Below, piece by piece: positions 26,359 through 30,454 of a stretch of DNA of 32,000 nucleotides. Below the pieces are notes generated by a model that was not told the DNA's origin, made no database searches, and worked only from the letters and a program-made list of their open reading frames with translations. The position numbers were made by a program, and so were the translations under genes. Position 1 is the first letter of the stretch; each line of letters begins with the position of its first letter. This DNA is from Mucisphaera calidilacus. Its GTDB lineage: Bacteria > Planctomycetota > Phycisphaerae > Phycisphaerales > Phycisphaeraceae. Location: assembly GCF_007748075.1 (NCBI RefSeq), contig NZ_CP036280.1, positions 1,260,001-1,292,000 on the forward strand. The letters are read 5' to 3'.

Positions 26359-27426
26359 CTATTCAACCACAACCGGCGCCGTTTCATCCGACACCGATGA
26401 CTTTTCTTCTTCAATCGCGACAGAAACCGTTTCACCCGCCACAGCCTCAGAAACCTCGGTCTCGCCAGCCGTCTCGGCCGCCGGCTCGGTCTCGGGGACA
26501 ACATCCGTGCCCGTGGCCATCTCATCGGAGTCAGCATCGGCAGCAGGGGGGGCCACGGCCTCTGTTTCGGGAGCCGTCGCGGCAGATTCTTCAGGCTGAG
26601 CCTCCGCTTCAGCGGGCAGAACCAACGCCGCCCCCGCGGCAGGCTCATCGTTCAGCGGCTGCTCCTCAACGATCGGCACCGCCGGCATGACACCGCCCAT
26701 CGGCTCGGGCGCACCGCCCGGCGATCCTGCCGGCAGCGTCCGCAGCACCGCGTAAGCCGCCACGCCCACCGCCGCCAGCGCCACCAAAAGGCTGGCCACC
26801 GCGATCAGCGTCATCTGGCGACGCCCCTTGTCGTACAGATCGCGGACCTGACTGTCCGCTCGCTTGGTCCGCTCGGCCAGGGTCCGCAGCATCAGCGTGC
26901 TCGCCTGGCTCGTCTCGTCCAGCTTCCCGAGCGTCGAGCCCAGGCCGCCCAGGCGATCTGAGAGCACGGCATCCGTCCGCTCACGCACCGACAACGCCTT
27001 GGCGATCTGATCCAGCCCCGTCTGCTCGTTGTCGAACGCCGTCGTCAGACGCTCGAGCGTTCCGTTGAGGATCGCGCGGTCCTCGGCGTGCGCCGTGATC
27101 TGCTTCTGCAGCAACGCCGCCATCTTCTGCTGCGTCTCCGCAACATGACGCAGCTGCGCCACCGCCTCGGGCATCTCGCGGACCGCCTCCAGGAGTCGCT
27201 CCGAACGATCAGCCTGATCACGGGTGTGCGTCTTCACCGACGCCATCACCTCAAGAACCTGCTCGTAACCCTCTTCGAGCCGCGCTAATGTGCCCTCACG
27301 CTGGGGCCGACCCGTCGCGACCGGCAATCCTCCCACAGTCTCGGTCTCCTCCGCCGCGTTCCGGTTGCGGCGCCAATCAAACAGTCGAAAAAAACGCTCA
27401 GAGAGCTTCATGGCCATCGTGGACAT
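26359..27426 (-). CDS. coiled-coil single-pass membrane protein with an acidic Glu/Ala/Pro/Thr-rich C-terminal tail
   Basis: The start is set at ATG 27426 (MSTMAMKLSERFF), preceded by AGGAG-7 nt. About 190 aa of heptad-like helix follow (LEEGYEQVLEVMASV..., QQKMAALLQKQITAHAEDRAILNGTLERL...), then one TM helix (MTLIAVASLLVALAAVGVAAYAVL), then about 115 aa of acidic low-complexity tail with ETE-type repeats. Confidence 0.75.
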   Translation of the reverse strand: MSTMAMKLSERFFRLFDWRRNRNAAEETETVGGLPVATGRPQREGTLARLEEGYEQVLEVMASVKTHTRDQADRSERLLEAVREMPEAVAQLRHVAETQQKMAALLQKQITAHAEDRAILNGTLERLTTAFDNEQTGLDQIAKALSVRERTDAVLSDRLGGLGSTLGKLDETSQASTLMLRTLAERTKRADSQVRDLYDKGRRQMTLIAVASLLVALAAVGVAAYAVLRTLPAGSPGGAPEPMGGVMPAVPIVEEQPLNDEPAAGAALVLPAEAEAQPEESAATAPETEAVAPPAADADSDEMATGTDVVPETEPAAETAGETEVSEAVAGETVSVAIEEEKSSVSDETAPVVVE

Positions 27427-27453
27427 CCAGGGACTCCTTAACAACACACGATA

Positions 27454-27585: not shown

Positions 27586-29016
27586 TCAATGTTCGCTGTC
27601 CGTTCGGTTCATCAGGGGCCGAATCACCCCGTAGAGCCCCTCAATCGCCCCCTCATCGCCGCGCGAACGCTGAATCCGCGAAAAACAGCGCACCAGCTTC
27701 TTCCGCGTTGCCTCCATCCCCTCTCTTGCCCAGATTGCCTCAGGCGACTCCGGATCCAGCGCCATCACCTCCCTGCGCGCGTGCGACCACCGCGCCACCC
27801 GCCCCTGGTGATCCAACGCACGCCCCAGCACGACGAACGGCAGATTCGGATGTTTCGACGGCCCGTACGTCACCCGTCGCCCCGCAAGCGTCACCGGCCC
27901 CAGCTTCATGTCCGCCATCCGATCCCCGTAACGCAGCCCCGCCGTCAATCCCGCTGCACCCCCGACCAACCCGCCGATCAGCGCACCGGCCGCCAGCGAC
28001 GCACCGCCGAGTCCCGCGTCGATGACCAGCCCGCCCGCCGCTCCGGCACCCGCGCCGCCTGTGGTCAGCGTCGTCAGCAACTGACGCTTCGTCAGCCCCC
28101 ACAGGTACCACCGATCGACATCAAACAGGTCTTCGCCCGGAACGGTCAGCCCCTCGCCCGCTCGCTCGAGCCGTCCGTGCCGGTAGATCCGCTCCACCTC
28201 GTGACGTGCTTTCTCCTCCAATTCACGCATCCGCTGCTCGTACCGCTCGCGTAGCTCCGGCTCCTGTGCCGTCGGGATCGCGTCCTTCGCCATCAGCTTC
28301 TCGACACGCTCCGTCAGCGCCGTCGAGACCCACTCGGCGATCACACGACTGGCCCGGTCGTGCGCACGCTCGCGCGCCTGCTTCAACAGCGAGAGCGACC
28401 GACGCACGCCCACACCATTCGCCTCCGCGATGGCCGCGAACTGATCCAGCACCACCATCTGCTGCTCGAAGTCCGCCGCCACCGGGTTGAACACCACCGC
28501 GACCCCCAAAAACTGCCCCAACGCCGTCTTCCAGGAATCCAGATGGCGTGCCTCGTCACCGATCGGGTTGATCAGCCCCAGACCCGGACGCCCGGTCCAA
28601 CGCAGGATCTCCATCTCATCCTCGTACTCGGGCCCGTAAGGCACCGAGCCGTCCACCACATACACCACCAGCCCGCCATCCATCAGCGGCTCCAGCAACT
28701 CGCACTCGTCCACCATCTCACCCGATTCGCGATGCGCTTCGAGAAACGCACGCACCGCCGCCGGCCGTTCCGCCGCCGTCGTCGCCCGCTCACGCAGCCA
28801 CGCCAGCGCCCGCCTGGGCCGCTGAAACCCGGGCGTATCCACCAGCCGATAAACCCCGTGCCCATCCACCTCCACCCGGTAGGCGGTGCTCTGCGTCGTC
28901 GTTCCCGACCGCGGCTCGATCCGCACCGACTCGTCCTGCGCCAGCGCCGCCACCACACTCGACTTCCCCTTGTTCGGGTGACCCACCACCACAAACGTCG
29001 GCATCGACTCAGCCAT
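27586..29016 (-). CDS. P-loop GTPase with a C-terminal glycine-zipper membrane segment (GTPase/DUF3482-like)
   Basis: G1 is GHPNKGKSS, G2 is the region RSGTTTQ and G3 is DTPGF. The G4 position reads LINPIGD instead of NKxD. A central helical region follows, then TGGAGAGAAGGLVIDAGLGGASLAAGALIGGLVGGAAGLTAGL. The start is set at ATG 29016 (GGGGAGG-5 nt), which overlaps the upstream stop by 8 nt (ATGGCTGA). Confidence 0.85.
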   Translation of the reverse strand: MAESMPTFVVVGHPNKGKSSVVAALAQDESVRIEPRSGTTTQSTAYRVEVDGHGVYRLVDTPGFQRPRRALAWLRERATTAAERPAAVRAFLEAHRESGEMVDECELLEPLMDGGLVVYVVDGSVPYGPEYEDEMEILRWTGRPGLGLINPIGDEARHLDSWKTALGQFLGVAVVFNPVAADFEQQMVVLDQFAAIAEANGVGVRRSLSLLKQARERAHDRASRVIAEWVSTALTERVEKLMAKDAIPTAQEPELRERYEQRMRELEEKARHEVERIYRHGRLERAGEGLTVPGEDLFDVDRWYLWGLTKRQLLTTLTTGGAGAGAAGGLVIDAGLGGASLAAGALIGGLVGGAAGLTAGLRYGDRMADMKLGPVTLAGRRVTYGPSKHPNLPFVVLGRALDHQGRVARWSHARREVMALDPESPEAIWAREGMEATRKKLVRCFSRIQRSRGDEGAIEGLYGVIRPLMNRTDSEH

Positions 29017-30454
29017 CGCCACCTCCCCGTCCATCCAACTGCGCCACGACCACGCCGCGTAGCCCCAGCCCGCTCACCGAACGTCGCCAGTCCGCCATGT
29101 TGAGTTTGTCAATCCCGCCACCCGCCGAGGCAACCAGCACCACCACCACCCGCAACCCCTCCCCAAGCGACGACCGGAGCATCGCCACGTCATCCAGCAC
29201 GTCACCCACCGGCGGCTCCCAGCCCCGAACCAGCACCTGCACATCACCAACCTCACCCGCACGACCCGCCAGCGCCTCCGCAGCACGTTCCAGCGGAATC
29301 ATCTCGCTCGCCTCAACACCCACCCCTTCCGGCACATCAATCCCCGAAACCGCCACGACCGCGACCGGCCGCCGATCCACCCGTGCATCTCCGCCAGCAG
29401 CCGGAGCACCCGCACCGCCGGCTGCGCGGCCACCGCTGCGATTCTTGGTCGTGGGCCCTTCTTTCAGATCCAGCAGCACATCACGCACGCCCTCCAATCG
29501 AAGCACCGCCCGGACTTCCGCCACCCGCAGCCGAAACACCGACCATCCGAAGACCAGCAGCCTTGGCAGCAGCCCGTACACCACCATTGCCATCAGCAGG
29601 TACGGCCACCAGCGCCCCAGCGACGTGCCGCCAGCCTCCACGCCCGTCGGGTCACCCGGGACACGGTAAATCCGTGACGCCTCAATCAGCGTTGTATCCA
29701 CGGTCGCGTCGCTCCACGCCCAGACCCAAGGCGTCGCCGTCACGCGAAGCACCTCCGCCAGCCACGCGCTCTCCATCTCAAGCGTCGTCGCCCAGCCGAA
29801 CGCCAGGTCCGAGAAAAGCACCGACAGCACCAGCACACCCATCCCGCCGATCTGAAACCACAGCCCGAAACCCAGGCTCCAACGCGCCGCCAACCATCCC
29901 ATCACGCTCGGCCACGAGCCCGCATCCAGACCGACCGTCCCGCCCCGCAACCACCACCGCGACACCAGTTCCGCGACTCGCATCCGTCCCAGCGAAATCG
30001 CCAACGCCAGATCCCCCACCACGGGCAGCAGTCGCCACCACCGATACGTCACGCTCCCCAGCACAAACAGCAAGCTCAGCACCAGGGGCAGGACCGCGAA
30101 CAGCCCCAGCAGAGGCAGCACATTCACGGGCCGCCCGCCGCTGTACGCCAGTAGGCCCCCGGCCAGCCCTCCACCGATCACCACGCCCAACAACCCGACC
30201 ACGACTTCCACGAGAACCAGCCCACTCGACCCCGCCCGCACAGTCGTTAAATCCCGCCCCGACGACCACCGACGCAGACACCGGATCGTCGCGCCCGCCG
30301 AGCCTCCCAGCGCCCGATCCACCACGGTGACTGGGATACCGGGCTGCGACGCCCGATCACGCCCGCGATTCAAAGCATCAGCGATCTGTATCAAGTCTCT
30401 GAGCACGCACACCCTTGTAGTCGGGGAACAGGCCTCCGCCGCCGGACAACACAA
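29009..30454 (-). CDS. polytopic membrane protein with a C-terminal soluble domain (DUF2868-like)
   Basis: About 6-8 hydrophobic Trp/Gly/Leu-rich helices (LVLVEVVVGLLGVVIGGGLAGGLL, LPLLGLFAVLPLVLSLLFVLG, WFQIGGMGVLVLSVLF, WWPYLLMAMVVYGLLPRLLVFGW), then an Ala/Gly/Arg linker and a domain of about 110 aa. There is no ATG near the 5' end: the track start is TTG 30454, and GTG 30406 (AAGGG-5 nt) is my preferred start. The pairing with a DUF3482-type GTPase is what I recall for DUF2868. Confidence 0.7.
   Translation of the reverse strand: MCCPAAEACSPTTRVCVLRDLIQIADALNRGRDRASQPGIPVTVVDRALGGSAGATIRCLRRWSSGRDLTTVRAGSSGLVLVEVVVGLLGVVIGGGLAGGLLAYSGGRPVNVLPLLGLFAVLPLVLSLLFVLGSVTYRWWRLLPVVGDLALAISLGRMRVAELVSRWWLRGGTVGLDAGSWPSVMGWLAARWSLGFGLWFQIGGMGVLVLSVLFSDLAFGWATTLEMESAWLAEVLRVTATPWVWAWSDATVDTTLIEASRIYRVPGDPTGVEAGGTSLGRWWPYLLMAMVVYGLLPRLLVFGWSVFRLRVAEVRAVLRLEGVRDVLLDLKEGPTTKNRSGGRAAGGAGAPAAGGDARVDRRPVAVVAVSGIDVPEGVGVEASEMIPLERAAEALAGRAGEVGDVQVLVRGWEPPVGDVLDDVAMLRSSLGEGLRVVVVLVASAGGGIDKLNMADWRRSVSGLGLRGVVVAQLDGRGGGDG

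Follow-up and report, generated by a model that had tools for sequence, protein, structure and literature searches.

The window analysed here, a stretch of 32,000 nucleotides (nt) of the Mucisphaera calidilacus contig NZ_CP036280.1, carries on its minus strand three co-oriented open reading frames (ORFs) at positions 29009-30454, 27586-29034 and 26359-27552, which we refer to as genes A, B and C. They had been described in an earlier note on this DNA, made from the sequence alone, as a membrane GTPase module with a possible link to the giant surface protein encoded next to it. Gene A (29009-30406, from the start favoured below) encodes an integral membrane protein of the DUF2868 family, gene B (27586-29016) a GTPase-like protein of 476 amino acids (aa) that combines an MMR_HSR1 domain with DUF3482, and gene C (26359-27426) a helical, coiled-coil-like protein of 355 aa. 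Downstream of the three follow an ORF of 8.1 kb (18120-26231), encoding the giant protein, and an HrpA gene (14170-18081). The gene B product is 100% identical to the M. calidilacus protein P0001 (Phycisphaerae, Planctomycetota). The start positions of gene A, gene C and the giant gene were refined by orthologue alignments. The true unit at this locus consists of two genes, not three: A and B form a translationally coupled, chromosomal cassette that is conserved across many diderm phyla.

Distribution and linkage of the DUF2868/DUF3482 pair

Both families had been named in the earlier note, and this assignment proved exact. Gene A scores 110.5 bits against Pfam DUF2868 (PF11067, cutoff 26.8) over residues 183-464, while gene B reaches 46.1 bits for MMR_HSR1 (PF01926, cutoff 21.9) and 146.9 bits for DUF3482 (PF11981, cutoff 29.2), the latter over residues 170-455. 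The open frame of gene A extends to a TTG at 30454, but its start is most likely the GTG at 30406 with AAGGG upstream, which gives a protein of 465 aa (alignment A2). In public annotation gene A is given only 410 aa (P0121), less than this homologue-supported length; the N-terminal LRDLIQIADAL helix is kept in relatives.

The two genes overlap, as had been noted earlier. The TGA stop of gene A (29009-29011) and the ATG start of gene B (29014-29016) lie within a shared stretch of 8 nt, ATGGCTGA (29009-29016), and a GGAGG sequence (29022-29026) is found 5 nt upstream of the gene B start, the whole junction as read from the sequence occupying 29009-29026 on the minus strand. This arrangement is not peculiar to the window: 45 of 58 loci, from different phyla, have an overlap of 1-14 nt between the stop of A and the start of B, most commonly one of 4 nt (ATGA). 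The translational coupling proposed for this one junction is a family-wide property.

A genome scan for the GTPase yielded at least 588 confirmed loci, 80 of which were kept for neighbourhood work and combined with four loci from close relatives into a set of 84. The GTPase family itself comprises more than 3,354 proteins at E ≤ 1e-5 among the scored candidates. A DUF2868 gene adjoins the GTPase gene in 79 of the 84 loci (tblastn), in agreement with the earlier statement that the two families travel together, and ORF maps place it immediately upstream and co-oriented, the upstream position being found in 61 clustered loci. The pair loci span at least seven phyla and come from Gammaproteobacteria, Campylobacterota, Desulfuromonadales, Myxococcota, Verrucomicrobiota, Kiritimatiellia and Planctomycetota. 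When the neighbours within six genes were clustered, only the DUF2868 and GTPase families were conserved across phyla. No third neighbour family was conserved among the clustered loci, the remainder being genus-level synteny as in Sulfurovum or Marinobacter. Plasmids are nearly free of the GTPase family, with three positive records in 72,556, two of which are mislabelled chromosomes. The overlap, the adjacency and the near-absence from plasmids therefore define a chromosomal, translationally coupled two-gene cassette.

Natural A-B fusions were considered as interaction evidence and discarded. The long gene B ORFs seen at three loci (L056, L070 and L080) have no DUF2868 match and are ORF-extension artefacts. 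A defence-island or mobile-element origin of the pair was also rejected, both the plasmid and the phage searches arguing against it. A tblastn search with gene B matched 14 Moraxella catarrhalis prophage records. Moraxella phage Mcat24 (L091, KR093648.1 36535-37935) contains a bona fide DUF3482 GTPase gene (213.7 bits) near the record end, which comes after phage helicase and nuclease genes, has no DUF2868 gene upstream and is followed by a UbiB/ABC1 kinase gene. This copy is probably host DNA at the prophage border, the prophage having possibly inserted beside or within the pair.

Predicted architecture of the two proteins

The gene A product is rich in Trp (4.1%) and Gly (14.8%). Its AlphaFold model, with a predicted local distance difference test (pLDDT) score of 82.5, combines four long hydrophobic helices with a conserved DLAFGW segment at the membrane interface and a soluble C-terminal beta-alpha-beta domain carrying GWEPP, and the earlier description of a polytopic protein with a soluble C-terminal domain holds. 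DLAFGW and GWEPP are family motifs, as are PW, WWP and LPR (alignment A2). The charge bias of the loops places the N-terminus, the loop at residues 136-182 and the C-terminal domain in the cytoplasm, consistent with four transmembrane (TM) segments in an N-in/C-in topology. In a Foldseek search of the model against the PDB, no match fell below E = 0.1 (best E = 0.17). Model and charge pattern point to gene A being a four-helix inner-membrane protein whose N-terminus and C-terminal alpha/beta domain would be cytoplasmic.

The model of gene B (pLDDT 82.8; predicted template modelling score, pTM, 0.79) begins with a G domain at about residues 1-200, in which switch II is followed by a helical insertion. 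Next come two long helices (205-235 and 248-277), a small beta element, a hairpin at about residues 316-362 and a C-terminal domain (379-474). The P-loop GHPNKGKS (residues 12-19, positions 28960-28983 on the minus strand) is found in 76 of 78 loci and DTPGF in 70 of 78, and GHPNKGKS, GTT and DTPG are invariant in alignment A1, that is to say G1, G2 and G3 are present. The G4 motif of the DUF3482 family is N-x-I-x and not NKxD, with Lys in none and Asp in 15 of 75 sequences at the NKxD positions. In the window the corresponding residues 150-153 (28558-28569, minus strand), which hhalign aligns with INKMD of LeoA, read NPIG in place of the canonical [N/T]KxD of a guanine-specific GTPase. With G4 degenerate, the protein is guanine-specific only putatively, and the label 'GTPase' is provisional as regards the base.

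Sequence and fold searches recognise the G domain only, with Der, Era, EngB and TrmE as the best matches. Foldseek ranked Der, Era and EngB at the top and GIMAP2, Toc34, septins and IniA lower down; a search against viral models returned generic G domains only. The matches to Der, Era and TrmE in Pfam, NCBIfam and the PDB cover G1-G3 alone, and the NCBIfam scores for Der (39.7 bits vs a cutoff of 306.7) and Era (29.2 vs 237), both over residues 12-101, lie far below those expected of an equivalog. The gene B G domain is of the compact Era/Der/TrmE type. The P-loop Asn and the hydrophobic switch-II residue (DTPGF) presumably point to the cation-dependent, dimerisation-activated TEES/HAS class of TRAFAC proteins.

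The glycine zipper that had been reported at the C-terminus of gene B is present as quoted and forms part of a hydrophobic hairpin (residues 316-362, positions 27931-28071, minus strand), a putative membrane-inserted paddle. Its pattern, GAxxGxxxDxxxGGxSxxxGxxxGxxxG, is conserved across the family (alignment A1): G325, A326, G329, D333 and G348 are invariant, while G337, G338, S340, G344 and G352 occur in 90% or more of its proteins. Residues 321-356 are modelled with a pLDDT below 50, between confident flanking domains. Because these flanks are modelled as one body, the hairpin would have to return to the same side of the membrane. Since its first arm has neither the length nor the hydrophobicity (maximum hydropathy 1.66) of a classical TM helix, we infer from the model a re-entrant or monotopic mode of membrane insertion.

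Gene C, the giant protein and lineage-specific synteny

The start of gene C at ATG 27426 is supported by the orthologue alignment and leaves a spacer of 159 nt between B and C. The protein agrees with its earlier description as a helical protein with one TM segment and an acidic tail: some 155 residues with one Pro are followed by a single strongly hydrophobic segment (residues 201-235, positions 26722-26826, minus strand) and a Pro/Ala/Glu-rich tail of 123 aa with 29 D/E against 1 K/R. No Pfam or NCBIfam family scores above its cutoff. A word-index homologue search returned four close relatives only, while an exhaustive HMMER search revealed a family of 337 representatives at 50% identity, of which 77 reach E ≤ 1e-10. 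This family, which includes the proteins P0151-P0300, is unnamed and has no Pfam model. Its members share the motifs GY-EV, VR-H, Q--RSERLL and LPEAL and a constant architecture, in which about 200 helical residues precede a single TM segment and a variable tail that is often acidic or Pro-rich. A hidden Markov model (HMM) of the family found no member in the other 78 pair loci, and the five C-family genes inspected on their native contigs have unrelated surroundings that include neither the pair nor a giant. The only member with a name comes from Phycisphaeraceae, and a MotA/ExbB gene follows one of the copies (L086).

The B-C spacer was said to be structured. Its length stands, but it is not significantly structured when compared with 200 shuffled sequences (z = -1.09; 27/200 fold as well), and what it holds instead is a conserved promoter-like footprint. 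TCGACA and GATAAT, separated by 17 nt, occupy 27540-27512 on the minus strand, the only promoter-like match in 26000-31000. The hexamer blocks TCTTCGACA and CCGATAATG are invariant in the four orthologous spacers, which are otherwise poorly conserved, and because they form such invariant islands gene C appears, from this sequence pattern, to have its own sigma-70-like promoter. It is probably a neighbour in a separate transcription unit and lies outside the conserved cassette. Downstream of the promoter-like site, the gene C leader contains a terminator-like hairpin, GATAGGGCGAGTCTCTATC, and after it a T-rich run (27450-27468, minus strand). This hairpin is kept in one of the relatives (L004) with one compensatory change and could be an attenuator or leader structure.

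The giant is a cyclophilin/CARDB protein of 2,693 aa that starts at ATG 26201 with MSLIRMIGRS. It had been described as lacking any recognisable signal peptide or sorting signal. A recognisable motif is nevertheless present at its N-terminus, the LEPR-XLL-like ARLETLEDRVLLSA (26094-26120, minus strand), which is conserved in all four orthologues in the form LE[D/P]R[V/L]LL, with an exact LEPRVLL in L001. The match to NCBIfam NF012209 (LEPR-XLL) is near-threshold at 15.7 bits vs a cutoff of 17. N-terminal LEPRxLL domains have been described in other giant proteins (preprint 10.64898/2026.03.19.712371).

The order A-B-C-giant is restricted to four relatives with 66-74% GTPase identity, namely a Mucisphaera sp., a Phycisphaeraceae metagenome-assembled genome and two metagenomic contigs, and gene C and the giant are present only at loci L001-L005. 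In the close relatives synteny extends largely to the flanks, where a dockerin-like gene lies upstream and HrpA is found downstream. An inserted HDOD-GGDEF gene separates the dockerin-like gene from the pair in three of them. Neither gene C nor the giant occurs in the other Planctomycetota pair loci (L012, L038, L060 and L082), and no LEPR-XLL or cyclophilin/CARDB giant was found in the other pair loci at all. The cassette does not include gene C or the giant, which are independently regulated neighbours confined to this lineage.

In the window the dockerin-like neighbour is a divergent gene on the plus strand (30734-31951). Its product is of the secreted type and contains a dockerin repeat (34.6 bits) as well as a weakly matching PEP-CTERM tail (16.4 bits vs a cutoff of 20.7). 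A 17-nt inverted repeat with arms at 26345-26361 and 30578-30594 (15/17 complementary) exactly brackets the three-gene block, at about chance expectation for 4.6 kb. Its upstream arm lies within the block GGATTCTATAAGACAAGTGAAA, which is conserved between the window and L004 and probably belongs to the promoter of either gene A or the divergent gene. Repeats sought in 26200-30800 gave short matches only, at chance level, and an Rfam scan of the whole window found nothing. Of 85 loci, 9 encode a DEAH-box helicase of the HrpA/HrpB type no more than 8 kb from the pair, among them the window (14170-18081), four Marinobacter loci (L020, L044, L068 and L071) and a second Phycisphaeraceae locus (L060), in which the helicase gene (11970-14462) is co-oriented and two genes downstream of the pair. 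This recurrence is probably due to chance.

A possible membrane switch and its alternatives

We propose, at a probability of roughly 45%, that the cassette is a cytoplasmic-face, dimerisation-driven membrane switch or remodeller that is anchored on the DUF2868 protein and follows a dynamin/mitofusin-like logic. In this model A and B would be made in a fixed ratio and form a membrane complex, in which the Gly-rich hairpin of B may pack against the Gly-rich first TM segment of A while the cytoplasmic domain of A would contact B. Gene B would act as a nucleotide switch on the cytoplasmic face, composed of a compact G domain, two long helices and a hairpin dipping into the membrane, with the C-terminal domain packing back on the helices. 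It would cycle by nucleotide-dependent dimerisation, as might be expected because it has the hydrophobic switch-II residue (DTPGF) and the P-loop Asn of cation-dependent TEES GTPases. The helical arm and hairpin could then use the nucleotide cycle to alter the membrane or A, the whole resembling a miniature dynamin/mitofusin-like device for remodelling or maintenance of the inner membrane.

The dynamin-like part of this proposal, which the earlier note had put in terms of a dynamin/atlastin-like logic, finds some independent support in profile comparisons. In PADLOC, gene B matches only LeoA and LeoBC, the dynamin-like proteins of Eleos. The LeoA match covers the P-loop region, and residues 209-353 align to positions 356-505 of the 601-position LeoBC profile, over the helices and the start of the hairpin. 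The same profiles match diverse members of the family (LeoA 25/25, LeoBC 24/25; best E for LeoBC 1.9e-9), and hhalign of the family against LeoA of enterotoxigenic Escherichia coli (ETEC) gives an alignment from G1 to G4 (64% probability) in which INPIG faces INKMD. In LeoB the membrane-binding domain is located between the middle domain and the GTPase effector domain, and the LeoA paddle has been described as glycine-rich (PMC4159319). A tblastn search of plasmids with ETEC LeoB gave only 10 partial matches.

Several results weigh against this proposal. Membership of gene B in the dynamin family is not established: Pfam Dynamin_N reaches 18 bits vs a cutoff of 27 and over the P-loop only, and the G domain of about 200 aa is smaller than the roughly 300 aa that make up the large G domain of dynamins. 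Foldseek finds no whole-chain similarity of gene B to dynamin-like proteins, with IniA at rank 33 (TM-score 0.24). A profile of the DUF3482 part found no dynamin-like protein in the PDB, its matches being sub-threshold ones to Gly-rich TM segments (nucleoside permease, SlyB) and to Rab7. With the single ETEC LeoB sequence, hhalign gave no helical or hairpin match and nothing beyond switch I/II. Helical and Gly-rich composition could have raised the LeoBC score artificially, and the hairpin, besides its weak hydropathy, is modelled with low confidence. We infer the A-B complex from gene linkage only. Finally, the literature searched contains no experiment or publication on the function of either family, as had been stated before; the mentions of DUF2868 or DUF3482 amount to an in-silico annotation in Pseudomonas aeruginosa, a proteomics table and two surveys.

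A bolder version, which we consider doubtful, would make the pair a previously unrecognised minimal two-component relative of dynamin and mitofusin, in which a GTPase-like arm of 476 aa, equipped with a glycine-zipper paddle and a base site that is non-canonical and possibly not guanine-specific, would work on a dedicated four-helix membrane partner. Such a device would serve remodelling or repair of the inner membrane in hundreds of diderm species, including P. aeruginosa, and in the Mucisphaera lineage it may in addition have been recruited, along with gene C, for the LEPR-XLL giant.

Among the alternatives to the membrane switch, a split FeoB-like system would make DUF2868 the conduit of a nucleotide-gated transporter or channel that is opened and closed by the hairpin-held GTPase. 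The G domain is of the HAS/cation-dependent type as in FeoB, FeoB G domains appear in the PDB profile search of gene B, the A:B pairing is strictly 1:1, and gene A has invariant polar residues in or next to TM helices, namely N111 (PVN), D216 (DLAFGW) and T224. However, the Pfam FeoB_N match of 19.5 bits is below its cutoff of 27, four TM helices are few for a transporter unless it is oligomeric, gene A has no fold or sequence similarity to transporters (Foldseek probability < 0.1 for ABC and TTYH), and neighbour clustering gave no conserved substrate-related genes; we regard this explanation as unlikely. It appears somewhat less likely again that gene B is a membrane-tethered Era/Der-like translation or ribosome-associated GTPase, for instance one that docks ribosomes or aids membrane-protein biogenesis at DUF2868. 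Ribosome-biogenesis GTPases (Der, Era, EngB, YlqF and HflX) are indeed the closest relatives of the G domain, but this similarity is confined to G1-G3 with NCBIfam scores far below the cutoffs, no KH or other RNA-binding domain was detected in gene B, and the remaining 270 residues (DUF3482) match nothing ribosomal.

The idea of the earlier note that A, B and C form one three-gene tethering, export or anchoring machine for the downstream giant is improbable in the light of the neighbourhood data, even though some of its elements are suggestive. The order A-B-C-giant is kept in the four relatives despite only 37-47% identity of the giant, and three of them keep it yet differ upstream by the inserted HDOD-GGDEF gene. 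No export route for a LEPR-XLL-like motif such as that of the giant was found in the literature searched, and gene C would combine a cytoplasmic helical domain and one TM segment with an external acidic tail. But the four relatives are one narrow clade in which the flanking dockerin-like and HrpA genes are kept as well, the 78 other pair loci, four of them from other Planctomycetota, are without a C-family gene even by HMM and without a LEPR-XLL or cyclophilin giant, the C family occurs elsewhere without the pair or the giant, and gene C has its own conserved promoter-like element. A neighbourhood survey in which the pair lacked conserved neighbours had been named beforehand as refuting the idea, and this is what was found outside the four relatives, so that in its general form the idea is refuted. 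Because the pair recurs elsewhere without C, the giant or any other conserved neighbour, the link between module and giant is unsupported beyond lineage synteny. The earlier note is in this way partly supported, its observations being largely correct while the three-gene module and its link to the giant are unsupported. Least probable of all, and in our view very improbable, is an anti-phage defence system related to Eleos. It could be invoked from the exclusive PADLOC matches of gene B to LeoA and LeoBC and from the DUF3482 gene at the edge of Moraxella prophage records. Eleos, however, needs two dynamin-like GTPase genes where we find one GTPase and a non-GTPase partner, gene A has no PADLOC match, the family is chromosomal and essentially absent from plasmids, its context within genera such as Sulfurovum and Marinobacter is stable and housekeeping-like, unlike that of a variable defence island, and the Moraxella copy, with a host-type UbiB kinase gene after it, probably lies in flanking host DNA.

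The pair is widespread, occurring in at least 588 bacterial species of many phyla, a major pathogen among them, and both of its proteins are still classed as domains of unknown function. What is new here is the delimitation of the unit to two genes, the anatomy of its products, and the LeoBC-profile lead together with the degenerate G4. The pair becomes in this way a testable hypothesis on nucleotide specificity, membrane binding and an A-B complex, and the outcome also disposes of the appealing but unsupported idea that module and giant surface protein are linked.

Comparison with known systems

LeoA/LeoBC, known from the ETEC tia locus and from Eleos, share with gene B the order of G domain, helices, hydrophobic Gly-rich membrane element and C-terminal helices. 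Gene B differs in its length (476 aa vs about 570-780 aa) and in its compact Era/Der-type G domain, and the pair has no second dynamin-like gene, the partner being a polytopic non-GTPase protein. The likeness to mitofusin, atlastin and GIMAP is one of analogy only: in gene B, too, the G domain leads into a helical bundle and a hydrophobic hairpin whose two flanks stay on the same side of the membrane, and the GIMAP2, AIG1 and Toc34 families are among the Foldseek matches of the G domain, but no sequence-level relationship is shown and the TM-scores of 0.2-0.3 concern the G domain only.

The N-terminal G domain of FeoB, a K+-activated HAS-GTPase coupled to a membrane domain, offers a similar GTPase-plus-membrane logic. 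We take both G domains to belong to the broad TEES/HAS class, with a hydrophobic residue after DxxG and a P-loop Asn. In contrast to FeoB, the membrane partner of gene B is a separate and unrelated protein, and its G4 is degenerate. YcjX/YcjF, encoded near the psp genes in Enterobacteria, are likewise a functionally uncharacterised pair in which a P-loop NTPase is joined by an integral membrane protein, and titles of papers reportedly link these genes to the phage-shock system and membrane-damage responses. The likeness lies in a conserved pair of P-loop NTPase and membrane protein; the families are others, and the two systems were compared by description only.

By far the closest counterpart is the proteobacterial DUF2868/DUF3482 pair of P. 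aeruginosa, Nitrosococcus and Marinobacter, which has domain order, adjacency and the stop/start overlap in common with the window. Identity to the window proteins is 40-48% for B and 25-33% for A, both passing the Pfam gathering thresholds. Nothing essential differs, the window member being set apart by an unusually Gly/Ala-rich hairpin and by its lineage-specific neighbours. The window pair is a Phycisphaerae member of a catalogued and functionally uncharacterised pair, and as such of modest novelty.

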